A stretch of 64,000 bases of DNA, taken from Candidatus Latescibacterota bacterium (GTDB taxonomy: Bacteria > Latescibacterota > UBA2968 > SICM01). Both the position numbers and the translations under genes were made by a program. Positions 7,660 to 28,317 of this stretch are shown piece after piece; positions within the stretch are counted from its first letter, which is position 1, and each line of letters begins with the position of its first letter. The notes below the pieces were generated by a model. The model did no database searches, was not told the DNA's origin, and saw only the letters and a list, made by a program, of their open reading frames with translations. Location of the stretch: assembly GCA_965217865.1 (NCBI GenBank), contig CBDCJO010000002.1, positions 3,328,001 through 3,392,000 of the forward strand, in the 5' to 3' direction.

Positions 7660-7995
7660 ATGGAGCAACTGTCCTCAAACAGTGACCCGGTCAAGAAGCG
7701 CAGGAGCTTGTCCCCGGAACAGAAGTATGAGATTTTCCTTGAAGCCAGCCGGGGAGATGTTCCCATTGCACAGGTGCTGCGGAAATGGGGCATTCATTCC
7801 TCGGATCTAAAGCGTATTCGTGAGTCGGTCAAGTCCGGGGCCCTCAAGGAGTTCAAGGGTCGCCGGAGCCGCAAGCCGATGGTATCGGCTGAGGAGGTGG
7901 AGCAGCTGCGCAAAGAGCGGGCACGCCTGGAGCAAACGATCATTGAGCAATCTGTGGAACTTTCCCTGCTAAAAAAAAGTGTGAATGGGATCTGA
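7660..7995 (+). CDS. IS3-family transposase OrfA (HTH)
   Basis: HTH plus leucine-zipper-like tail; GGAGGAG RBS; A8G slippery site at 7971-7979. Confidence 0.85.
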   Translation: MEQLSSNSDPVKKRRSLSPEQKYEIFLEASRGDVPIAQVLRKWGIHSSDLKRIRESVKSGALKEFKGRRSRKPMVSAEEVEQLRKERARLEQTIIEQSVELSLLKKSVNGI

Positions 7996-8018
7996 CAGGC
8001 CCGATCAAGGGCCACCGG

Positions 8019-9050
8019 GTGCAAGCTGAGGTCAAACGCGAGATCCTCTTAATGGTCCATCGGGCCAAGGAGAAAGGGGTGAAACTCACCCGTTCTTGCG
8101 AGATCCTACAGCTTCCCCTCCAGCGGTATTGTGCCTGGAGCCGGCGAGATCGAGAAGAGAAGCTGGATGGGGTGTCGGACCCGCTTTTGGATGGGAAGCC
8201 CGGGCCCGCCCCTGATAAGGCCCCACACGGATTGCTGAGGGAGGAGAAAGAGCAAATCCCGGCCCTCTTAAGGGATGAGACCTATGCCGATCTGCCTCCC
8301 CATCAGCTGGCGGTGGTAGCCTCAGAGAAGGGGGTAGTGCAGGCCTCGGCCTCCAGCTTCTACCGACAGGCCAGGAAAGAACGTCTGGCACGCAGGAAAC
8401 AGGTGAGGACGCCGGTCAAGCAGAGCAAGCCCCAGGTCAAACCTGAAGGTCCTAATCAGGTCTGGAGCTGGGACCTGACCTACATCCCATTTTTCGGTTT
8501 GTTCCTGTATTTTACCGCCATTCTCGACGTGTATTCCAGGAAGATCGTAGGATGGAAGCTCTCCTTCAACGCGACCGTGGAGCAGGTCAAACAGGCCTGG
8601 GATCAAGCCCTTGCCAACGAAGGACTGCTGGACCTGGACACTGGGCCCATAAGCTTGACAGCCCTCTCAGATCACGGATCTCAGATGAAGGCCAAATCGA
8701 TGGCCCAATTCTTCAAGGACCTGGGCATCTCGCAGCTGTTTGCCCGATATCAAACACCCACGGACAACGCCTGGATCGAAGCCTTTTTCCGGACATTCAA
8801 ATACGACTGGCTGCGCTTCCAGGACATCTTCACATTCCATCAACTGGAAGGCCTGATTGATTCCTTCATTCACAGCTACAACGCCGAACGCTATCACGGG
8901 GCAATACAGTATGTCACGCCTCTTCAGAGGCATAAAGGCCAGCATCAAAAGATTCTTCACCACCGACAAGGTCGAAAGGAGGAGGCTCGGCAGCGCCGCA
9001 TAGAAATCAATCGGCAAAGAACATCCCAGACCATCCACAAGGCTGCCTGA
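8019..9050 (+). CDS. IS3-family transposase OrfB (rve DDE), probably fused to OrfA by -1 frameshift
   Basis: WSWDLTY, DVYSRKIVGW, SDHGSQ, DNAWIEAFF; in -1 frame to OrfA and open back to the A8G site. Confidence 0.9.
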   Translation: MQAEVKREILLMVHRAKEKGVKLTRSCEILQLPLQRYCAWSRRDREEKLDGVSDPLLDGKPGPAPDKAPHGLLREEKEQIPALLRDETYADLPPHQLAVVASEKGVVQASASSFYRQARKERLARRKQVRTPVKQSKPQVKPEGPNQVWSWDLTYIPFFGLFLYFTAILDVYSRKIVGWKLSFNATVEQVKQAWDQALANEGLLDLDTGPISLTALSDHGSQMKAKSMAQFFKDLGISQLFARYQTPTDNAWIEAFFRTFKYDWLRFQDIFTFHQLEGLIDSFIHSYNAERYHGAIQYVTPLQRHKGQHQKILHHRQGRKEEARQRRIEINRQRTSQTIHKAA

Positions 9051-9141
9051 ATCTTGCTTGGACCTTTATCTACTTTTCTCTTGTTATCTCAGAATAGATA
9101 CAAAGTCACCAAAAAGTTCCATATCTATCTCGCACGGTCGG

Positions 9142-9735
9142 CGGCCGTATGATCCGAAAAGGCCGCTTTTGGCCATGGACGAACACCCCGTGCAGTTGAT
9201 CGGAGAGACTCGCATCCCGGTCCCGGAAAAACCGGGACATCCCCGACGTTACGACTATGAGTATGAGCGTAACGGCACAGCCGCGAATTTCTTGTTCCTC
9301 GAGCCCCTGACCGGACGTCGGAAGGTCCACGTCCGGGAACGCAGGACCGCCGTAGACTGGGCTTACGAGATCCAGGAGCTGCTTGAGGTGGACTACCCGG
9401 ATGCGGAAGTCGTGGTCCTGGTCTGCGACAACCTCAATACTCACACCATCGCATCTCTCTACGAGGCCTTCCCACCCGAAAAGGCCCGTTCTCTAGCCAA
9501 ACGCCTCGAATTGCACTACACCCCCAAGCACGGTAGCTGGCTCAATGTCGCCGAGATCGAACTGAGCGTCCTTGCCAGACAATGCCTGGACAGCCGCATG
9601 CCTGACCTGCAGACCCTCACCAACCAGGTGGAGGCCTGGAAATGTGATCGAAACGAGAAACACAGAACCGTTGATTGGCAGTTCACGACCACCGACGCCC
9701 GAATCAAACTGAAGAAGCTCTATCCCAAGTTTTAG
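9142..9735 (+). mobile_element. IS630-family transposase, C-terminal remnant
   Basis: MDEHP, YDYEYERNG, LVCDNLNTH, YTPKHGSWLNVAEIE; N-terminal HTH absent. Confidence 0.85.
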
Positions 9736-13260: not shown

Positions 13261-13355
13261 CACCAGAATAAGGACACCATGATCGGCTCCGCTTGGCTTT
13301 GGAGTTTTACAAAAACAATGCAGACGCCTAACACATATTAAAGGCCCCGGGTCAA

Positions 13356-13833
13356 GAAAAAAAGACTCCTCCATCACGATTTTCACCGTTTTTTTGCGAC
13401 CCTAACGTTCGGGGCGTGCAATGAGCCGATCCGAAGAGGTTTGGCGATGTTCGGATCTTTGTCAGTCGTCGGTCTGACTTGATTTTCACAAACCGGGCTA
13501 GATGTGAGCCATCTGCACCAAACACGTATCGGGAATCAAGCGCCTCTCACGGTATACTGTGGAGCGCCCTGGGAGAGGCATTGTCCTCTCCCTCCAGAAA
13601 ATAATCGGTACCCCTTGAGTCCCAATCAAGAAGGATGGCTGTTCTCCCCTTTTATGAGGGGGAACGCCAGTTAGGTTCGGGTTCATCGCGGGGGCAGACG
13701 GACTGACTGTCTCAGATCCGCTCATCTATGTTCTAAATAAGGGGTGAAGGCGGCTTCCCAATCAAGCCGATGAGCTGGGCTATTGTCCGGACGTTGCCCT
13801 GCCAGTTAGGCGCCGGGTTAACCGCCCCACCCA
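13356..13833 (-). ncRNA. Candidate bridge/seek RNA with repeated target-binding loop modules
   Basis: Non-coding and hairpin-rich; two CCTAACTGGC...CTTGATTGGGA modules match the GCCTAAC insertion site; RNA boundaries unknown. Confidence 0.6.
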
Positions 13834-14877
13834 TTATGCTACAAACCGTTTCTCGTCGAATGCCTGGCCGTTTTTGAGCATTTGGTAGGCGGCCACGCCG
13901 AATTTGTGAGCGATGACGCTCTTGGCTTTTCCCGGACCTTGTTTGCTTTTGAGCTTCTCGTAGTATCTATTGATCGGTTCTGACCATCGCTGGGCGACGA
14001 GGATGATTTCTGAGAAGGCCCACTTTAGGTGTGGGTTGCCGATTTTGTTATTCCCGTCCTTTGTCTTCTTTCCAGCGGACTCTCTCTCGACTTTGATCAG
14101 CCGGCTGTAGGAGGAGAAGGCTGAAGCGGATTTGAACCGTTCAATCGTGTGGATTTCATACAGGATGGTCATGGCCAACATCTCCCCAAGTCCGGGAACC
14201 GTCATCAGGATAGACAGGACATTGCGATCGTGATGTTTGGCCTGTGCCAAGACTTGCTTCTCGACTTTGTAGATCATTTTGTCCAGGGAGTCAACCAGGT
14301 CCAGATCGCAGTCCACAGACATACTCAGATCTGGGTCGGCCAGACGTTCGCACAGCTTTCTCCTGTTGCTCTTCTTTTTGACCTGGTCGCTGAGAGGATC
14401 CAGGATAGCTTGCTGAGAGAAGGTGTTCTGGATGTGGGTGTAACACTCAGCCCGTAAGGCCACAAACCGGTGTCTTCGCCGGAGCAGGTCCCGGGTTGCC
14501 CGCATCTCTTGCGGATAGGCATAGGCCATCGGGAACAGGTTGCAGCGCATCAGCTCAGCCAGCATTCTGGAATCGAGACGGTCGTTCTTTTTCTTGCCCC
14601 CATGGATCGCCTTCATATACAGGGCGTGTCCCAGGTAGAATGGAATCCCGGCCTTGTGACACCCGTCAGCCAGCCAGTACCAGTTGAAGGTTGACTCCAC
14701 CCCGACGGCGATGCTACCGAGGTGAGTTTCCAGCACCTGCAGCAGGAGCTTGAAGTCGTTTTTCAGGTTGCGCTGGAACACAATCTCTCCCATCTTGTCC
14801 ATGATGCAGACAAACATCGTTCTGGCGTGGAGATCGATGCCACAGAAATAGTTCGAGTCGATCCTTGCGTATTGCAT
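13834..14877 (-). CDS. IS110-family recombinase/transposase (DEDD RuvC-like plus Transposase_20)
   Basis: GIDLH, VGVES, KKKNDRLDS, VPGLG, RESAGK (catalytic Ser), GNPHLKWAF; AGGAGG RBS. Confidence 0.93.
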   Translation of the reverse strand: MQYARIDSNYFCGIDLHARTMFVCIMDKMGEIVFQRNLKNDFKLLLQVLETHLGSIAVGVESTFNWYWLADGCHKAGIPFYLGHALYMKAIHGGKKKNDRLDSRMLAELMRCNLFPMAYAYPQEMRATRDLLRRRHRFVALRAECYTHIQNTFSQQAILDPLSDQVKKKSNRRKLCERLADPDLSMSVDCDLDLVDSLDKMIYKVEKQVLAQAKHHDRNVLSILMTVPGLGEMLAMTILYEIHTIERFKSASAFSSYSRLIKVERESAGKKTKDGNNKIGNPHLKWAFSEIILVAQRWSEPINRYYEKLKSKQGPGKAKSVIAHKFGVAAYQMLKNGQAFDEKRFVA

Positions 14878-15047
14878 AAGGCCCTCCTGTGGGAGAAAGG
14901 TGATTGAGATATCCGGATCTCAATTATAACCTCTCCTGACAACGAGGGCCTTTATATTAATATCAAAGTGCCCACGGCTGCGCCTGTCATCCGGTTTGCA
15001 TAGAACAAAAGCGCAAACCGGCTGCCAGTGCTCGACCTAAACCGCCC

Positions 15048-15270
15048 TCATCGGCAACCGTGGATCCCCGTGCAGGTATCGGGACCGAGTTCGATTTGGT
15101 ATCACTTGGCGTAATAACGAGTGGATCGTGCTGGGACTTATCCGAGATCCGGGGTGGATTGATCCAGACCTCGGAAGGCAGGTCGGTTGGCTGTGACACC
15201 TCTTATGGAGACGGCCGGAAACTTCACTGAATTCCAACTTTCAGTGTCTCAAAATTGTTGACATGTTCCG
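15048..15270. mobile_element. IS3-family end remnant with internal inversion
   Basis: 15048-15176 is a direct copy of 2304-2432; 15194-15270 is the reverse complement of 2230-2306. Confidence 0.7.
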
Positions 15271-17444: not shown

Positions 17445-18476
17445 TCAGGCAGCCTTGTGGATGGTCTGGGATGTTCTTTGCCGATTGATTTCTATGCGGC
17501 GCTGCCGAGCCTCCTCCTTTCGACCTTGTCGGTGGTGAAGAATCTTTTGATGCTGGCCTTTATGCCTCTGAAGAGGCGTGACATACTGTATTGCCCCGTG
17601 ATAGCGTTCGGCGTTGTAGCTGTGAATGAAGGAATCAATCAGGCCTTCCAGTTGATGGAATGTGAAGATGTCCTGGAAGCGCAGCCAGTCGTATTTGAAT
17701 GTCCGGAAAAAGGCTTCGATCCAGGCGTTGTCCGTGGGTGTTTGATATCGGGCAAACAGCTGCGAGATGCCCAGGTCCTTGAAGAATTGGGCCATCGATT
17801 TGGCCTTCATCTGAGATCCGTGATCTGAGAGGGCTGTCAAGCTTATGGGCCCAGTGTCCAGGTCCAGCAGTCCTTCGTTGGCAAGGGCTTGATCCCAGGC
17901 CTGTTTGACCTGCTCCACGGTCGCGTTGAAGGAGAGCTTCCATCCTACGATCTTCCTGGAATACACGTCGAGAATGGCGGTAAAATACAGGAACAAACCG
18001 AAAAATGGGATGTAGGTCAGGTCCCAGCTCCAGACCTGATTAGGACCTTCAGGTTTGACCTGGGGCTTGCTCTGCTTGACCGGCGTCCTCACCTGTTTCC
18101 TGCGTGCCAGACGTTCTTTCCTGGCCTGTCGGTAGAAGCTGGAGGCCGAGGCCTGCACTACCCCCTTCTCTGAGGCTACCACCGCCAGCTGATGGGGAGG
18201 CAGATCGGCATAGGTCTCATCCCTTAAGAGGGCCGGGATTTGCTCTTTCTCCTCCCTCAGCAATCCGTGTGGGGCCTCATCAGGGGCGGGCCCGGGCTTC
18301 CCATCCAAAAGCGGGTCCGACACCCCATCCAGCTTCTCTTCTCGATCTCGCCGGCTCCAGGCACAATACCGCTGGAGGGGAAGCTGTAGGATCTCGCAAG
18401 AACGGGTGAGTTTCACCCCTTTCTCCTTGGCCCGATGGACCATTAAGAGGATCTCGCGTTTGACCTCAGCTTGCAC
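17445..18476 (-). CDS. IS3-family transposase OrfB
   Basis: Same protein as 8019-9050 except one K>E change. Confidence 0.9.
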   Translation of the reverse strand: MQAEVKREILLMVHRAKEKGVKLTRSCEILQLPLQRYCAWSRRDREEKLDGVSDPLLDGKPGPAPDEAPHGLLREEKEQIPALLRDETYADLPPHQLAVVASEKGVVQASASSFYRQARKERLARRKQVRTPVKQSKPQVKPEGPNQVWSWDLTYIPFFGLFLYFTAILDVYSRKIVGWKLSFNATVEQVKQAWDQALANEGLLDLDTGPISLTALSDHGSQMKAKSMAQFFKDLGISQLFARYQTPTDNAWIEAFFRTFKYDWLRFQDIFTFHQLEGLIDSFIHSYNAERYHGAIQYVTPLQRHKGQHQKILHHRQGRKEEARQRRIEINRQRTSQTIHKAA

Positions 18477-18499
18477 CCGGTGGCCCTTGATCGGGCCTG

Positions 18500-18835
18500 T
18501 CAGATCCCATTCACACTTTTTTTTAGCAGGGAAAGTTCCACAGATTGCTCAATGATCGTTTGCTCCAGGCGTGCCCGCTCTTTGCGCAGCTGCTCCACCT
18601 CCTCAGCCGATACCATCGGCTTGCGGCTCCGGCGACCCTTGAACTCCTTGAGGGCCCCGGACTTGACCGACTCACGAATACGCTTTAGATCCGAGGAATG
18701 AATGCCCCATTTCCGCAGCACCTGTGCAATGGGAACATCTCCCCGGCTGGCTTCAAGGAAAATCTCATACTTCTGTTCCGGGGACAAGCTCCTGCGCTTC
18801 TTGACCGGGTCACTGTTTGAGGACAGTTGCTCCAT
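18500..18835 (-). CDS. IS3-family transposase OrfA
   Basis: Identical protein to 7660-7995. Confidence 0.85.
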   Translation of the reverse strand: MEQLSSNSDPVKKRRSLSPEQKYEIFLEASRGDVPIAQVLRKWGIHSSDLKRIRESVKSGALKEFKGRRSRKPMVSAEEVEQLRKERARLEQTIIEQSVELSLLKKSVNGI

Positions 18836-19209: not shown

Positions 19210-19605
19210 TCACGCAACGGCTACCATTTCAGCCGGTGGTGCGATCTGTCGTTCCTCATAGAGCAGCTGGAGCTGGAGCAGTTCGGTGGACGTGATGTTG
19301 ATATTCTGCCACCTGGCAGCGGCACGGATGAGAACAGCATAGACGAGCTTCAGGCAACTCTTTTCGGAGAAGAATCGCGGCAATGTTTTGGTTCGGCGGC
19401 GTTCCTCGACAAAGCTGCGTTCGATCAGGTTGGTGGTGCGGGCGAACTTCCGGAGTCGCCAGGGAAGCTGGAGGTGTGCGAGGAGAGCTTCGAGGTCCTC
19501 CGTGAGACACTTGCACAGACCGGGGAACTCCTTGCTGAACTTCTCCAGAAACTCTCGCACCGCACTTTGGCCGGCCTGAAGATCCGGGGCGTCACGAATC
19601 ATCAC
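19210..19605 (-). mobile_element. IS256-family transposase, C-terminal remnant
   Basis: RTTNLIERSFVEERRRTK...SEKSCLKLVYA. Confidence 0.8.
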
Positions 19606-19632
19606 CAGATACGGCTTGCACGGAGAATCTTC

Positions 19633-19917
19633 TGGATCTGTATCACCGGCCGTATGATCCGAAAGGCCCGTTCTCTAGCCAAACGCCTCGAATTGCACTA
19701 CACGCCCAAGCACGGCAGCTGGCTCAATGTCGCCGAGATCGAACTGAGCGTCCTTGCCAGACAACGCCTGGACAGCCGCATTCCTGACCTGCAGACCCTC
19801 ACCAACCAGGTGGAGGCCTGGAAATGTGATCGAAACGAGAAACACAGAACCGTTGATTGGCAGTTCACGACCACCGACGCCCGCATCAAACTGAAGAAGC
19901 TCTATCCCAAGTTTTAG
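19633..19917 (+). mobile_element. IS630 remnant with internal deletion
   Basis: LDLYHRPYDP joined directly to sequence matching 9478-9735. Confidence 0.8.
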
Positions 19918-19947: not shown

Positions 19948-20364
19948 TTATGCATCGGGAGAGAGAAGGTTCTTCAGCTTTCGGCTCACTGTAGCTTGTT
20001 TCCTTTCGACCTCACACTCCCAAAGTCTCAAGACTGTCCAGCCTTCTCTGCGGAGTTCGCGGATATTCCGCTTATCTCGGTCGCAGTTCTTGCGCAGTTT
20101 TTCCTCCCAGTATTCCCTGCGCGAATGAGGAATCCTGCCTTCCCCACAATGGGGGCACTGATGCCAGAAGCAACCATGCACGAGAACGATAGATCTGTAT
20201 TTCCTCAAGACAATATCAGGCTTCCCAGGAAGCGATTTTACATTCAACCTGTACCTGTAACCCATATTGGTTAGGATACGACGCACAATCCGCTCCGGTT
20301 TCGTATCCTTTCCACGAATCCGTGACATTACCTGACTTCTCTTCTCTTTCGTCCAAATATCCAT
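19948..20364 (-). CDS. vsr: Very-short-patch repair endonuclease Vsr
   Basis: MDIWTKEKRSQVMSRIRGKDTKPE, LPGKPD, VHGCFWH, LWEC. Confidence 0.92.
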   Translation of the reverse strand: MDIWTKEKRSQVMSRIRGKDTKPERIVRRILTNMGYRYRLNVKSLPGKPDIVLRKYRSIVLVHGCFWHQCPHCGEGRIPHSRREYWEEKLRKNCDRDKRNIRELRREGWTVLRLWECEVERKQATVSRKLKNLLSPDA

Positions 20365-20543
20365 GACTCTCCGGGCACTTGCTCGCCGAGTCGCTTGGAA
20401 GCGACCCTCTACACCGATGGTTTCGGTAACTTCGTCTCCTCTATCATCGCTTCGATTGCTGCCGACTGGAGCGATAGTTGCCGGGCGGGAATTGCACCCG
20501 CTGAAGATCGGCACCTTTCATGGCACACTGCCGCATTAAGGTT

Positions 20544-21584
20544 AATAGGTGTGAAAAAAGAGAAAGGGGTGACCCTAACCTTCCTTTATAGCAGTCCATC
20601 CAAAACCGTCCGGTGAACGCCGGGCATGGTAAGGAGAGAGTCGCCATGAGAGAATCTACACTGGAGTCCGTAGACCTGTCTATGTCAACGTGGGGCACGC
20701 TGGAAAGACTGGGCCCGCTCGTCGATCCAATCTCTTTTGCAGCAGGACCTGGAAGAGGACGCAACTACTGGGACGTACACGCTACGAGCGCTGATCGGGA
20801 GTGGACCGCAGTCCAGGGTCGCGCAACGGCCATGGCAAGCCTCGACGCGTGTCGTTGATGTCGGGCACCATCGAGGTGAGACGGCCTCGGGGCTGGGGAC
20901 TGAAGGAGCGCTTTGAGAGCCGCATCCTGCCGTTGTTCATGCGCCGTACGAAAGCGGTGACCGAGTTGCTGCCCGAGCTCCAAGGGGACTTCGAGCTGGC
21001 GTTGCGCGGTCTGCTGGGCGACAGAGCACCTCTGTCGGCCTCGTCGGTCGCCCGTCTGCGGGTGGGAAAGAGGAGTTCGAGACTTGGCAAGAGCGACGCC
21101 TGGACGATCGTGAGATGGTCTACGCCTGGACGGACGGCCTCTACGTCAAGGCTGGGCTGGAGAAAGACAAGGCAGCGTTTGCTGGTCGTTCCTCGGCACC
21201 ATGAGCGACGGACGGAAGGAGGTGCTGGCGGTCCGTCCCGGCCATCGTGAGCCGACCGAGTCGTGGTTGAACGTCTTGCGTGTTTTGCGCGACCGGGGGT
21301 TGTGCCGCTGTTGTTGATGGCCGACGGTACCCTGACCATCTGGAGTGCCGTCGGCCAGGTCTGGCCGGAGACGTCGCATCAGCGGTGTTGGAATCACAAG
21401 ATCATCAATGTGCTCGACGACCTGCCCAAGTGCGCACAGAGCAAGGCCTAGGCTCTGCTGACACAGATCCCCACGGCCGCCACACGGGCCAAGCCGAGGC
21501 CCGGCGTGACACGTTCGCCGCTCACTACCGAGACCAGCATCCCGAGGCTGCCTGATCTCATTTTACACACCTATTGACGCGACC
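20544..21584 (+). mobile_element. Degenerate IS256-family element
   Basis: Frameshifted RFESRILP, DGLYVKAGLEK, HQRCWNHK; inverted ends AATAGGTGTGAAAA and TTTTACACACCTATT. Confidence 0.75.
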
Positions 21585-22715
21585 TCGCTCATCGCAGATG
21601 AATGCCTTTAGGCTGACTGCGACTTGATGTGCTAATGGTACCGGAACGCCATTCGACACTACTGCGAACTTGTCTGTGAGTGACATATCCGGATGCAAAT
21701 GGTATTCGTCCGGAATGCTCTGAATTCTCATCGTTTCCCTGACACTTAAGCGGCGTTTCTTCCAGGGGTGAAGGTGCACCTCGTTGTGTCCATAACAAGC
21801 TGTGGGGCTGAACCTGTACCGGTGAAGTCTCTTGAATGACTTCCGTTTCGTGTCGCCTTCCTCTATGCTTGAGAACCTCTCTGAGTAGGCTGCAAAGACA
21901 TCCTTCCCGTTTGCTATCTCCTCAGGCAGCGAGCCAGAATTCAGGACGGAATCTACCATCAGCTCATAGGGTGTTCCTTTGGGCCGCTTCGGCCTGCCCC
22001 CGAACTTGCAAATTTGTGGCCAATTATAGCCTGCCCTCGCTCCCCTGTATGGGGGGGGGATATCGGGCCAGGGGAACCAATCCCTCTCCGACGAGCCGAT
22101 CTTCCGGCCAGCGCACTGGCCTGCAAATCTGGATTCTATTCCAATCAGTATGAGACGTTCTCGATCCTGTGGGATTCCCATTTCCAGCGCATTCAAGATT
22201 CTCAAATCGAGACAGTAGCCTTTGGATTCAAGCTTCTTTTCGAGCTTCTTCAGGAACTCGCGGTGAACGTGGACCCGGTATAGCCCAGCAACGTTCTCAA
22301 ACACGAAGAACCGGGGCATCAATGAGCAAACGCGGTTGAAGAAAGTCTTGGTCAGCTTGCCATTCACTCCCTTGACTCCGCGGTTTTTTCCTCCTGAGCT
22401 GAAATCTGGACAAGGAGGGCCGCCAATAATGCCAAAGGCTGACGGTTTTCCTTCTGGAAATGCTTGTGCAAAGATCTCAGGCGCAAACAGCCTCTTGATG
22501 TTCTTTGTATTGCTGATTTTCGCAGGTCCTGAATTCTTACCCGTGAATTCACGCCACCGGGACATGCCGTAGCTGTACATTTTTCCATAGGCAGGATTGC
22601 ATTCGTTAGTCTACACAATAGTGAAGCCCGCCTGCTCGAAACCCATATCGAGGAACCCGCCACCCGTGAAAAACGACAGGATAGTTGGCTCTATAACATC
22701 CTTGCTGCGAGTCAT
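21558..22715 (-). pseudogene. dcm: DNA (cytosine-5)-methyltransferase with in-frame TAG at codon 35; C-terminus abuts IS256
   Basis: SFFTGGG (motif I), GGPPCPDFS, ENV, PQDRER, RRLSVRE, NGVP; IV*TNE at 22611-22613. Confidence 0.88.
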
Positions 22716-22723
22716 CTTCTTCG

Positions 22724-23818
22724 TCACCGTTCCAAAGCGTACCCGGATGTAAGAGGAGTCTGAATATAAAAACCTTCGGATGAATCCCTGCGAAGGTTAC
22801 ATAGCATTACTCTTTTGGCGTCCTTTCCCAGGAAACCAAACCGCCCAGGTGACAATCCCCGCACTGCCACGGCACCCTGTTCCGAATCTATCACAGCCCT
22901 GATCGAACCGTTGCCCAAAATGCATATTTCCATGAGGTCTCCAGAAACATCCAGAGGCCATTCCGGGCAATCGCTTCTTATTCTCCAGTATTTCCTGCAA
23001 GCCGGGCGGTAGGCACAGAAACAACAGGCATCGGGGGAAGGACTTGCAAAGTGTTCTTGATCCGACCCCTTATCTATCATTTCGCTAATCCCGTCCTGCT
23101 TCTCCCCGGCCTCCTCAGCCAACTGTGAGCAACGGTCCTTATCAAGAGGGACATTGTACGCTTTCCCATCAAGGGTCTTCAGGGTAAGGCTCACCGGCCA
23201 TTCGCCGCGGACTTCATGATAGATCGCCGCGTACAAGGACAACTGCACTTCGTATGCCACCTTAACTTCATCCTTTTCCCCTCCTGGCTCCATGACAGCC
23301 CCCGTCTTGTAATCCACTATCTCCGCGCCGTTCTCTCTGTGCACTATTAGATCAACGAAGCCACCTAATCTGCCATCCTCTGTCTCAAGCCAGGCTTCAG
23401 ATTCGGTCTTCTGATCTTCGCTACTTGCCGGTTTGCGGCCGGATCGGCTCTCGACAATCTCTCCGGCAACAGCGAAGGTCAGGCGCTTTTTCACTTCATA
23501 TCTATAAGCATTCTTGAGCAGCGGGACCAGATGCTTCTCGGTCCTGGACTCCGACATTTCCGCTTCTACGTTGCGGGCTTCGCTATCCCATGCCTCCTGA
23601 AGTTGCTGCAGTGTATGGACTTTGCCTTGGCCAGCCAGCTCTAGGACCTTGTGCGACACGGAGCCAAGCCTGGCAGCGGGGGATACCGGAAGAAGGTGTT
23701 GCAGCCGTGCGGACGACCAGATCTCCCTCAATGGACACTGAAGCAACTGGTGATACCTGCTGGGCGAAATCCGCAGCATAGGTTGCAAGTCCATCCTTGG
23801 CACTGTGCCGGGAGACAT
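22724..23818 (-). CDS. PD-(D/E)XK (RecB/Cas4-like) nuclease
   Basis: ISPS...CP, GFVDLI..IVDYKTG, QLSLYA, CCFCAYRPAC. Confidence 0.85.
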   Translation of the reverse strand: MSPGTVPRMDLQPMLRISPSRYHQLLQCPLREIWSSARLQHLLPVSPAARLGSVSHKVLELAGQGKVHTLQQLQEAWDSEARNVEAEMSESRTEKHLVPLLKNAYRYEVKKRLTFAVAGEIVESRSGRKPASSEDQKTESEAWLETEDGRLGGFVDLIVHRENGAEIVDYKTGAVMEPGGEKDEVKVAYEVQLSLYAAIYHEVRGEWPVSLTLKTLDGKAYNVPLDKDRCSQLAEEAGEKQDGISEMIDKGSDQEHFASPSPDACCFCAYRPACRKYWRIRSDCPEWPLDVSGDLMEICILGNGSIRAVIDSEQGAVAVRGLSPGRFGFLGKDAKRVMLCNLRRDSSEGFYIQTPLTSGYALER

Positions 23819-26800
23819 CAGTCTCCCCTCGCCAACATTGTCCGGCAGGACCCTGGTCTCCGGAGCAGGTTGAATGTATCTATATATCCATCAACATCAC
23901 CGCCAGCCGCGACAATGGCATCAGCCAGGATCCCGCCGGGATTGTGAGTATTCCATAGTGGATGGACTACGAGAAATCTTCTTCCCCCCGCCGTGAATCC
24001 GGGCAAACTGCCCCAAATTACCGGTTGGTAATTGAAGTAGGAAATGAAGCTGTCCCTCAGACGGGCAGCCGTCTCAAGCCAATCTGAGAGCTCAGAACCA
24101 GAAAAGTCCCCATTTAAACCCGCCCGGTAATCAGGATCAAACAGGACCTTCAAATAAGTAATCGCGAGCCGCCAATCGAGGAGGCCGTGATATGTCATGT
24201 TTCGGTAGACTTTGAGGCAGTCGTAGCACGCGGAATACGCACTCCCGCCGATGAGCATCGCTATGGATCTGTGACGTATAGGATCCCTGTCCGCCCCCCT
24301 GGCAGATGTCTGCGAGGATTGCCAAGAGGTCTTCATATCCTTCCCTCACAAACCCTGCACCGTTCGGCAGCCTGTCGCTGAGGATTATATCAGCGACCCG
24401 TCTGTCTCCGTTGATTCTCCTGGTCGCTATGCTGGCAACTTCGATTTCATCAGGATCAATGTCCAGCCTGTCAGCAATCACTCGCTGCAGCACGAATGCC
24501 GCGGAATAGATCGCCGCTCTTACCGCGCTGTTCGACGAAAGAGGATCAAGCGTCAACCCCCTGTGGACGCCTGCCGGCGTAATACGCAACACTTCCGTGG
24601 TCTTGCCCGCAGCCAGTGCAATCCTGTCTGCATCCCCTCCATTGCCGAATCTGGACTCAATCCATTGATGCTCCAGCGGCGGAATCCCTCTGCCTCTTGC
24701 ATCATTGGCTGAAGGGGGTGGAGGAGTCCGGGTAATTCCTCCGTGGAACAGTCTGCCTGCATTATCGTTAATCCTCCAGACAGCCCCCGTCTCAGACAAG
24801 GTCTTCGTGCAGTTAGTTCCTTCCACTGGAAGACACCCTGAGTCGTCAGTCGATTCAACAAGGGCAGACGGAATTCCGAAAAGTACGTTCTCGTCTTCCT
24901 TCGCGTCCTCGCCTCTTGTAAGATTCGTGCGGAAGGCCTGAGGCACCGCGATCTGGAACTGGGTATACCGCCCGTCCTCTCCTCCAGGGTAGCCGCAAAA
25001 CGAGCACGAATCACCCGGGTCTTGTTCAATGCTTGTCCTCATAAAGCCGCACGCTTTGCATCTCTGTACCCAGCGTCTGAAGGGAAGTGGATTCTCCGAA
25101 GAAAGTGCCCACCTGGGCCCCCTACGGTAGATAGGTGGCGTAAAACCAATAGCCGTGTGAATCGCCTTGTCTTTGGTCTTCTGTGCGCCCGGTGCAAACT
25201 CCGTAATCGCCAACTCCAGATCACGGTCAATTGTCTTCTCGCCATTGCGACGCGTAAGCCGGTGATAAAGTACACGCGTCCTGGAGGGCATGCCAAACAT
25301 CGGAAGTATCGCCCCCTCCGCCAGGCGTTCGGCAAGCCCCTCGCCTGCCAGCTCTGGATTGACGGCGGCTTCATCAATGAGCATCGGCAATTCCCGTTCC
25401 AGCCACTCCAGATAATTCGTGTCGGGCCTGCCAAGGAGTGCCTGGATGACCTCCTGTTGGATTTCCTTCTGGTCTCTAAGCCAGTTTGCCACTGGCTCCC
25501 TGCTCTGCTCCCAGCCAGCTTGCCCGCGAGGATCCACTGCCAAACCAAACTCCCCGTGGCTGTCAGGCGGCCTGGGACTGTGCCACCAGCGCATTCCTGC
25601 ATCTCTGAACGCTCTTCGTAGGCACTCTTTTGCGAGAAGGCGACGCACTATGCGCTCTTGCCCCATTGTAAGGAACGGGACAGGTGGCGGGTCTCCAGTG
25701 ATCCTTTCCGGGAATGTGAAATAATGCTCGTCGTGGCTGCGACCCCGGCATAACGTAAGCACAAAAGCGAACGCCTGGCCCCGCCGGCCAGCGCGCCCCG
25801 CACGTTGCTGGTAGTTAAACCTCATCGGCGGCATGTTCGCGAGCATCACGGCTTGCAGATTGCCGATGTCTACACCCACTTCCATGGTGGTCGTAACGCT
25901 CAATGCATCGATTTCGTCTACGTGCTCCAGGAAATGCCTCTCTTGATCCGGCAAGTCAACGATGATTCCCCGGAAGTGCCGTTGCCGTTCGAGCTGGTTA
26001 TCCGTCTGCGCTGTAAGCTCCTCGCAATGAAGTCTTAGGGGCAGACGGCCTTCAGCCACTGATTTAGCCAGGTGGTTTGTGTCCCACAAGTCCGAACACG
26101 ATGTTTGAGAGTCTGCCGGAAGCGCCGCTTGGCAGGTTGTGCAAATACCCGCAGAACGGTGCAGATGATACCGCCCGCACCTCTGGCATTGCCAGACGGG
26201 GTCTTCCATATCCGCAACTCGCACATTGAGCATGCGTGCGGTCAGCTTTCCGTTTTCGTGTCCGGCCCGGCGCAACGCTTCGAAAATGGCATCGCCGAGA
26301 GCTAGCTCATCTGCTCCATACAATCCGGCTGCTTCTCTAATATATCGCTTGAATAAGGCGGTGAGGCCGCTATAAGATAGATAGTCGGTCTGCTGGTATT
26401 CAGAGCCCTCGTGCCGGTACTTGTCGCCTAGAATGCGCACGAAAGAATCGCAGGCCTGCACGAACTCCAGAAGAGGGAGGCCTGCGCTGTCCGCAAGCTC
26501 TTGAAGCCTGGAATCATCCGCTTCAAGCTTCAGCCACCCAAGCCCGGAGGATTCAAGTCCAAAGTACAGCCTGCCAAAGAACAGATTGCAAAGAGTCGCT
26601 ATCAGTGTTCTCCGGATCTTCTCCCGCCCGAAATGTGCTTCTTGTGGCAATCCCTGCCGCCAAGTCAGCCTGTCGAAGTCGAATAACACAGTCCAGTGGT
26701 GATAACGGTCGTCCCATCCAAACTCCTGGAGGAGAACGTCGTTTCCGGCAGGGTTAACTCCGGTACTGATTAGCCTTCTAATCAGCGCACCGCAGTTCTG

Positions 26801-28317
26801 AATGTCGTCCGGCGGAGGCAGGATCACTGAAATGGGGACAATCCTCCTCTGCCCGCGCGACCTCACGGACTCAATCTTCTGTCTTGCTCCGTCGATTTGC
26901 TCTACAACCGGCTCAGGCATGCCATCCCTGATCAGAGCCGCCATCTGTACAAGATTGCCATATTCCCTTTCTGCCCCAGGATGACTCTCTGCAAACGCCT
27001 GTGAGATTGGCGATAGGGGGTTCTGTTGCTCAATGTCCTCAAGGAGAGCTGGAGCGCTTGTGACCTCCGCTCGCAGTTCATCACACACGGTTTCCCTGAC
27101 CAGCTCGGAGTAGTGGTTACGCTCCACGCCGTTCGATATCTGGGCCGCGTCTTCCCTGCTGTCCGAGAACACGACCAGCTTGCGTTGCACATCCCTGCCT
27201 GCCAACAGCTGATAGAAAAGCTCCTTCGTTAAAATCTGGCTGACTTTTGAGAAACCGGTCCTGAACCCGCGAACGGGTGACATCCGGTTGCGCCGCCGAA
27301 CGTAGTTGCTACTACATGAAGGACACGCGCACGGCAAAGCCCTGTACTGCTCCTGTTCCTCAGGAGGGGCAGTGACTACAAACAAGTACCCCTTCGTCCA
27401 CTGCTCCGGATTCTCTTCTGCGTCCTCATGTGACAACCTGACGTGACCCGTCCTGTTATTGAGACTCGCACGTTGCCACTGACCCCATTCGGGCTGTCCA
27501 CCGCGATCGCCGAACCGGGACTGCCGCCACCGAGCCGGTTCGTCATACACCTGATCGCCTTGTGGCCAAAAAACAGCAAACTCATTATAGGTGCGGCGCT
27601 CAACAAATCTGGCTGCTTGCCTTTCGGGGATCCCTTCAATGTCGGGCGTTGTCGCCAACAACTCGATCACACCCTCATCCACGTTCAGCCTGCTTCCACC
27701 GAGGAATACGGTTCCGCAGTGTTCGCAATACAGTAGCTCCAAGACACGGTGGCCGTCCTCTGAGATGATCCGAGTTGATGCGTAGAGTTCCCCCACAGGA
27801 CGGTTGTCAATAGCGTCCGGCAGAGGCCTTGTGGAAGCCCATAATCCCTCAATGTTGCGGAAAAAGTAATGGATCCTGAAAGATGGAATCGTCCTGTCCC
27901 TGCTGTACCTGTCGAGGAGGGAGCTGGATATCAGCAGCCCCCTCGTCGCCATGACCGCGTCCGCCGCGGGCAGGCCAGTAAACAGTCTAGCCGCCATACT
28001 GCTGAGAGATACTGCCCGGACTCTCCCGTCGACGCTGCATGCATCAAGCAGCCGGGCTCTGAGATTACATCTGTCGAGTGCCTCAAAGAAGCCGTCCACG
28101 TCGCGGCTTTCTGTTCCGCCGAACATAGCAACAGCTTGTCCAAGCGTGGCCTCTGAAATGCTGTCCCCCTCTCCGGCAAGAAACATAAACGGCTCATGAG
28201 GCAATCCCGGACCCTCAGCAGGGATCGCCGGAACAGGAATCTGCGTTCCTTCGACTATGTTAAAGCTGGCAGACCCGAAGAAGTTCCGGAGGAATTCCTG
28301 GCTTTCCTCTCCCTTAG
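23818..28317 (-). pseudogene. Large DEAD/DEAH helicase with DUF1998 (DruE/DrmB-like); N-terminus removed at the IS, frameshift near 24237
   Basis: HYFFRN, YCEHCG, VFSDSREDAA, TTTMEVGVDIG, YQQRAGRAGRRG, DUF1998 C..ACYDCL; motifs I-III missing. Confidence 0.85.

Follow-up and report, generated by a model that had tools for sequence, protein, structure and literature searches.

A candidate three-loop bridge/seek RNA in an IS1111-type element inserted at an attC site

How does an insertion element whose non-coding end carries guide-shaped modules in tandem choose its site, and is each module an address of its own? The question is raised by an IS110-family element in a stretch of 64,000 nt (here called the window) from a contig of a Candidatus Latescibacterota bacterium, for which an earlier note, made from the letters alone, had proposed an RNA with duplicated and diversified target loops that lets one recombinase address variable attC sites. 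The repetition that the note saw is real and its guides lie where it had put them: CCTAACTGGC starts on the minus strand at 13810 and 13675 (spacing 135 nt) and CTTGATTGGGA at 13766 and 13630 (136 nt), and no dinucleotide shuffle (n=3000) of the non-coding end produced two such 10-mer repeats at matching spacing. As a whole, this end is more stably folded than shuffles (z -3.2). The common layout of the two modules recurs in homologous elements down to ~34% transposase identity. We think it probable that this is a three-loop bridge/seek RNA in which loop A sets the insertion site, the last loop reads the joined element ends, and the loop between them, B, serves as the partner arm of the donor loop and not as a chooser of sites.

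The element is of the IS1111 type within the IS110 family, in an ISGsu4-like lineage, and occupies 13334-14963 on the minus strand, inserted opposite the attC top strand as judged from its genome copies. Two copies of a CA core (13332-13333 and 14964-14965) bound this body, and the precise junction is fixed by an empty copy of the site (G000:C1:639660-639727) together with a contig joint from 13331 to 14964 found in two runs. Its gene (13834-14877, minus strand) encodes a DEDD recombinase of 347 aa (P0001), which combines the DEDD RuvC domain with the Transposase_20 domain and catalytic serine that mark the IS110 family (PF01548 and PF02371, both above cut-off). Residues D15, E61, D99, D102 and S267 were assigned from sequence, D15 and E61 by motif only, and P0001 matches the structures of IS621 (E 6e-8) and ISCro4 (E 8e-8) in alignments that cover D99, D102 and S267. 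The nearest named annotation among relatives is ISGsu4-like, at 35% identity (plasmid hits H16 and H17).

Most of the non-coding sequence lies downstream of the gene (~500 nt, against ~86 nt upstream). The subterminal inverted repeats at the left (14946-14958, minus strand) and right (13335-13347, minus strand) match at 10 of 13 positions, the inner nine perfectly, and their extensions are 7 (left) and 3 (right) when the core copies are counted. The first guide of loop A is complementary to the top strand in the orientation of the element, in keeping with the IS1111 rule, set out in the text of PMC11187229, that the top-strand match lies 5' of the bottom-strand match in the RNA. By its 3' non-coding region, its subterminal repeats and its guide order, the element is IS1111-like. 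Next to the right repeat, within 13335-13355 (minus strand), a TTGAC -35-like hexamer (13350-13355) belongs to a predicted promoter, identified by eye, that would be present at the junction of the circle only; a sigma-70 promoter scan of the linear element found nothing on the minus strand. Ten RNA runs contain 5-13% of the sequence words, and four of them gave assembled contigs of depth 2-6 and of the variant type described below, from which RNA ends or level are not readable, and the circle junction is absent from the contigs of eight runs, which carries no weight against circles since contigs drop rare forms.

The host genome holds seven near-identical full copies, a ~95% variant with two full and five partial copies, and two more distant ends, and further copies are near-absent in its close relatives (0 of 2 other genomes of the family; 1 of 167 genomes of the phylum). 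One variant copy (G000:C2:372333; L168) lies in a run of CACA, its insertion point moved rightwards by two bases from that of the others, an offset that may represent core slippage or a small duplication. Two internally deleted copies, one in this genome (G000:C2:1604227-1604736) and one in that of the relative L002 (G008:C53:40505-40949), keep both ends and have lost the guide loops, and so would depend on RNA and enzyme supplied in trans. A single contig of run X3 (depth 3; window 13331-13679) comes from a copy of the variant type in which 14 nt inserted at 13533 duplicate the region of the right donor guide; the flank on the left of this copy agrees with the variant's loop A at 6/7. In the relative L092, a tandem repeat at the non-coding end covers the ~110 nt that run from the right donor guide through to the end of the element, which looks as if a copy of the donor guide had served as an end. 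In the wider window, an insertion element of two genes (111 aa + 343 aa) has one copy at 7660-9050 (plus strand) and another, nearly identical and oppositely oriented, at 17445-18835 (minus strand), one on either side of the region, other transposase fragments lie at 9058-9735 and 19210-19917, and 19948-28204 (minus strand) is presumably a defence-like cluster whose genes, named by motif, we take to encode a Vsr-like nickase, a DNA cytosine methylase, a PD-(D/E)xK-like protein and a 1355-aa helicase.

The site that the element occupies can be assigned with some precision. Its left target half, the attC R'' box CGCCTAA with the core CA, lies at 13325-13333 (plus strand), as defined by the empty site and the joint described above, and the second core copy with the right part of the attC site extends over 14964-15050 (plus strand), where it is truncated and without its R' box. 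A full-length homologue stands in an integron locus of the same genome (G000:C2:1655000-1658200), where cassette-like genes and a pair of attC sites, of which one is homologous to the target in the window, come after a frameshifted intI-like gene whose two pieces score 118 and 105 bits, short of the TIGR02249 cut-off. Among the genome copies, the core is preceded by TAA at 10 of the 12 left junctions. Of the 14 right junctions, a count that leaves out a fifteenth row consisting of the inverted repeat itself, 7 are followed 64-81 nt further on by an R'-like box. Given that most left junctions end in TAA, that R'-like boxes lie beyond half of the right ones, and that the homologous full attC site follows an intI-like gene, we conclude that the target is the R'' box of attC, in agreement with the earlier note, whose match between the left guide of A and the left flank (13325-13332) is indeed an identity.

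Loop A is a free-standing target-binding hairpin at 13742-13832 (minus strand), with its left guide at 13805-13814 and its right guide at 13763-13772. It fits better than B at all nine sites in its own genome for which both flanks are available, and each version of A fits the sites of its own copies better than the other version does (7/7 and 2/2), one of the two variant sites, the one shifted by two bases, scoring only 4/13. Relative to the window copy, the variant copies are altered in both A guides and in neither B guide. For the wider attC clade, modules were placed in 69 attC-type loci (46 guide sets) out of 193, the others being truncated, in the non-attC group or without placeable anchors, and the positions were hand-picked from motif anchors and stem energies after some element ends were known. 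This hand-placed set has 49 sites with both flanks; A gives the better fit at 43 of them, B does so at four (by a margin of 1) and two are tied, with means of 8.7 versus 5.9 of 13, and 28 of the 49 favour A by at least 3. Positions at which the two loops disagree follow A in 206 cases, B in 43 and neither in 89, where chance alone gives B 44. Permutation within the clade gives A 5.10 versus 4.10 on the left and 3.77 versus 2.38 on the right (both p=1e-4), p-values which, like those that follow, are overstated because related elements are not independent.

Further afield, annotation by pattern covered 28 of 30 non-attC loci (33-38% identity), with several misplaced guides retained; they gave 25 scorable sites, at which A fits best in 23 cases, B in one, and one is tied. 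A further 94 loci, mostly from marine gammaproteobacteria, yielded 65 after removal of 12 that lacked an anchor for B, 11 that lacked the right anchor of A, five partial loci and one duplicate; the 45 gammaproteobacterial sites divide into 23 for A, 11 for B and 11 ties, and the right guide of A covaries with the site (p=2e-4). Pooling all sites (n=119) gives 89 for A, 16 for B and 14 ties. On these comparisons loop A is the site-choosing loop, and the covariation of its guides with the insertion site is that of the target loop of a bridge RNA. Rfam holds no match to the RNA at E<=1.

The third, divergent module (13531-13606), which had been proposed as another target loop, is the donor loop instead. 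This donor-binding loop spans 13517-13610 (minus strand), with a left donor guide at 13597-13606 (GATTATTTTC) and a right donor guide at 13523-13529 (ATACGTG), and GGCGCTTG (13537-13544) lies within the stem of an inserted arm of the loop in the predicted fold; the provisional placement of a donor loop at 13486-13510 found no support. In most relatives, over many differing sequences, the 7-mer before a TTTGG-like motif equals the last seven bases of the element, a comparison in which the element end was picked partly by that very match. When guides and ends are placed independently of each other, the right donor guide matches its own end at 5.69 of 7 positions against 4.11 when swapped, with 18 of 29 perfect, and the left donor guide at 6.96 of 10 against 5.90 (27 sets); the window copy itself matches its own end at 6/7 on the right and 7/10 on the left. 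This covariation of guides with element ends, which is that of a bridge RNA donor loop, rules out the module as a third target loop, and together with the covariation of A with the site it bears out the claim of a bridge/seek-type RNA gene.

What, then, is loop B? It lies at 13611-13693 (minus strand), with a left guide at 13670-13679 and a right guide at 13627-13636, and it does not predict the insertion sites found here. When 26 modules were aligned with MAFFT, misalignment of the variable arms left RNAalifold with no pairs, and stems were tested by own-versus-swapped duplex energies. The stem that encloses B and the donor loop (5' arm 13694-13698, 3' arm 13512-13516, minus strand) scores -12.2 kcal/mol for an element's own arms and -7.4 kcal/mol for swapped ones (31 elements), the same test with the flank of A being null (-5.1 versus -5.4), and the inner and outer stems of B are likewise element-specific. 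From B to the left donor guide the spacing is 29-36 nt in all 37 sets; from A to B it ranges from 64 to 346 nt. Since B shares the flanking motifs of A and has its own inner and outer stems, we regard it as a true paralogue of A, and since A, B and the donor loop stand in that order in both attC and non-attC lineages, the latter at 34-37% identity, the duplication is neither recent nor local.

One reading of such a paralogue is that it is still a working second target loop, for another class of attC sites and less used than A. In its favour, B retains the full loop shape, an R''-like left guide and supported stems, its right guide equals that of A over 8 nt in L039 and L059, and 11 of the 16 sites at which it is the better loop are gammaproteobacterial, where its right guide covaries with the site at p=0.04 (left guide, p=0.34). 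In the same group, discordant positions on the left follow B 40 times against 29 by chance, and this subclade is the result most against our own reading of B as a partner arm. On the right, however, the corresponding figures are 18 and 17.7, and over the attC clade B stands at chance. No site in its own genome prefers B (0/9), a test somewhat weakened since B-like empty sites are rarer there than A-like ones (1 versus 4 at two mismatches), and B is favoured by at least 3 at a single one of the 119 sites, a gammaproteobacterial one, against the 28 of 49 for A in the attC clade alone. Different loops thus do not explain different sites of this element, and a multi-target use of B here is not supported by the sequence comparisons, though in the marine gammaproteobacterial relatives it is conceivable. 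We consider a second address unlikely. From the proposal of multiple addresses the paralogy and common loop shape of B stand, and the proposal itself survives in a weaker form, through the 11 of 45 gammaproteobacterial sites that B fits better, its core-proximal tracking of the target over long evolutionary distance, and two relatives with several different A-type loops (both described below).

The guides of B are nevertheless more than noise. Permutation inside protein clusters, for which 65 guide sets remained once misplaced ones were taken out, indicates that B tracks the target weakly, and near the core: p<=0.001 with clusters at 50% protein identity, p=0.0007-0.007 for three of four measures at 60%, and p=0.02 at 70% for the four core-proximal left bases only, A being significant throughout. 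The fading of the signal in tighter clusters, until it is mostly gone at 70% identity, is what would be expected if B were a leftover ancestral target loop that acts as a folding arm of the donor domain and binds no DNA, its likeness to the target being inherited and slowly lost. The B guides left unaltered when those of A were reprogrammed in this genome, and a B without A's left guide in L051, L053 and L064, agree with such a vestige. Against it, lineages at 34% protein identity still share the two flanking motifs of B, its two stems and the bases that pair with the core, and the core-proximal bases of B shift with A in separate lineages (L054 versus L122, L114 versus L102, L090, L092; by eye). 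We hold it to be improbable, more so than a second address.

A further possibility is that the RNA refolds. B and the donor loop could form a rod whose loops are hybrids, one of B-left and donor-right and the other of donor-left and B-right, and which would serve excision by reading the two junctions present after insertion; alternatively, a 3' anti-guide could silence B. Hybrid stems are possible because all loops share their flanking motifs, and by a crude estimate of stem energy the canonical fold is preferred in no more than 21 of 37 sets. As for the anti-guide, a segment at 13397-13406 (minus strand) is complementary to the left guide of B at 9 of 10 positions; pairing at 8-9/10 is found in the window, L001, L081 and L084, the closest subclade only, where the segment changes along with the guide and closes it in the full-length predicted fold. 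Yet the segment is missing in most of 35 sets, the canonical B stems are element-specific, and the excision complex of IS621 uses ordinary loops according to the text of PMC13626964, so that we rate a switch of either kind as very improbable. Two related candidates were set aside: a general antisense partner for B, whose advantage (7.14 versus 6.92, p=0.012) is driven by the close subclade, and the reading of the left junction (target-left combined with donor-right) by B, for which the right guide of B mismatches the element end. The segment at 13397-13406, with its neighbours, also resembles an attC R' box.

We therefore return to B as the partner arm of the donor loop. Comparison of copies and relatives has shown the junctions, the CA core, the covariation of A with the site and of the donor loop with the ends, the closing stem and the near-fixed spacing between B and the donor loop, whose folding as one domain is predicted. 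By analogy with IS621, IS622 and CazIS110-1, the element would form a circle, the junction promoter would transcribe gene and RNA, and one recombinase dimer would bind each loop. Loop A, acting either within the same transcript or as an excised short seekRNA, would pair with the donor-loop dimer for insertion, and B would bind a dimer as the built-in cis partner of the donor loop. Published text gives precedents in the split loops of IS622, which are functional (10.1101/2025.05.14.653916), in the target-loop-only RNA that is the main species of CazIS110-1 (10.1101/2025.10.25.684509), and in the excision of IS621, which is independent of target complementarity (10.64898/2026.08.31.748434). Most speculatively, the domain of B and the donor loop may be an old two-loop bridge unit that now serves mainly for circle formation; if circle formation needs little or no target pairing, this would account for the retention in B of no more than 3-4 bases to either side of the core. 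Taken alone, an excision role of B is in our estimate well under even odds. Since each loop can be deleted or reprogrammed individually, what drives excision and what drives insertion is directly testable.

Some relatives have gone further in adding loops. Among the 46 guide sets, which were selected for placeable modules, the count including the donor loop is three in 44, four in one and five in one, against the two loops of a bridge RNA. Two Chitinispirillaceae elements carry, besides B, three A-type loops (L002:1136-1904) and two (L003:1054-1529), in each case with near-identical left guides and different right guides, which suggests a small natural guide array. The deleted copy G008:C53:40505-40949, in the genome of L002, occupies a site that fits the third loop at 12/13 (hand-scored), so that a loop other than the first can match a site; this lends something to the idea of a second address discussed above, except that the fitting loop is of the A type and not B. 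A left end at G009:C20 fits the first loop of L003 better than the second (4 versus 2 of 6, hand-scored), and in the L002 and L003 families no family was found with two loops each matching a site of its own. We entertain, tentatively, the wider reading that the lineage is a natural multi-guide bridge recombinase with tandem, separately loaded target loops, B being a low-stringency address or an excision guide. If so, it would stand midway between bridge RNAs with two loops and TIGR arrays, and would offer a ready scaffold for bridge editing that is multiplexed or controlled in direction; the relatives with several target loops themselves suggest that natural multiplexing is possible.

Among known systems, IS621 and IS622/ISCro4 likewise combine a DEDD recombinase with an RNA that has left and right target and donor guides and a 2-nt core (in the published text of PMC11208160, PMC13626964 and 10.1101/2025.05.14.653916), and their target loop precedes the donor loop, as here. 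In contrast, the RNA of the present element lies 3' of the gene, has three loops and not two, and carries its site-choosing loop outside the donor-loop domain, and its protein is only distantly related (E about 6e-8). According to the text of PMC11187229, the IS1111 seekRNAs of ISEc11, ISPa11, ISKpn4 and ISPst6 share with it the 3' non-coding region, subterminal repeats with extensions of 7 and 3 bp and the top-before-bottom order, and measure 82-96 nt, close to the ~90 nt of the first hairpin here, which directly follows the stop codon. Long seekRNAs reach 148-172 nt (Table 1 of PMC13604230), whereas the loop region here, compared by such published lengths, covers ~320 nt with a second guide-shaped loop and a donor loop. 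The elements ISKpn4, ISPst6 and ISPa25 are IS1111 elements that target attC (PMC11187229 and PMC13604230, in their text), and insertion at one attC end is common to that group and to this element. The insertion point nevertheless differs from that of the known group, which inserts ~7 nt from the box TTAG (AA*CG) according to Table 1 of PMC13604230, while this element inserts at CA right after TAA, and judged from the insertion points an independent route to attC is likely. Elements at the distance of the ISGsu4-like IS110 transposases have the layout of A, B and donor loop and similar ends, as here, and insert at sites other than attC, with left targets that end in GGGGT, GGTGC and others; ISGsu4 is known here from annotation, and the literature yielded no description of its RNA.

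The TIGR-Tas systems, as the text of PMC12045711 describes them, consist of tandem dual-guide stem-loop units for a Nop-domain protein, and L003 and L002 resemble short arrays of this kind. Yet Tas proteins recombine no donor, and a TIGR array has 5-15 regular units beside Tas, whereas here a mobile element has a transposase and a donor loop, and its target-type units number only 2-4, at irregular spacing; the same text describes IS110 bridge RNAs as a single two-stem unit. For IS1111 elements, Durrant et al. (PMC11208160) place the donor guides often within a multi-loop, and their text does not describe a second target-like loop; this multi-loop may be the same domain of B and donor loop. Two-loop bridge RNAs or short seekRNAs are the picture throughout the text of PMC11208160, PMC11187229, PMC12045711, PMC13626964 and PMC13604230, of 10.1101/2025.05.14.653916, 10.1101/2025.10.25.684509, 10.64898/2026.03.19.712850 and 10.64898/2026.08.14.744561, and of 10.64898/2026.10.21.760802 and 10.64898/2026.08.31.748434. 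In the text of this literature we found no paper with several target loops in one bridge RNA; Durrant et al.'s Fig. 6d and their Extended Data Fig. 10c, and Fig. S12 of 10.64898/2026.10.21.760802, for example, may draw three arms. The three-loop layout is thus apparently an undescribed, real variant of a known system. The standard account gives a bridge recombinase a single target loop and a single donor loop, and for IS1111 elements the descriptions in terms of seekRNA and of bridge RNA are not fully reconciled. In the reading that we prefer, the two would meet in one RNA: a hairpin of seekRNA size would set the site, and beside it would stand a bridge-like domain of two loops, of which the target-type one would have lost the choice of site and yet stays conserved over a wide lineage.
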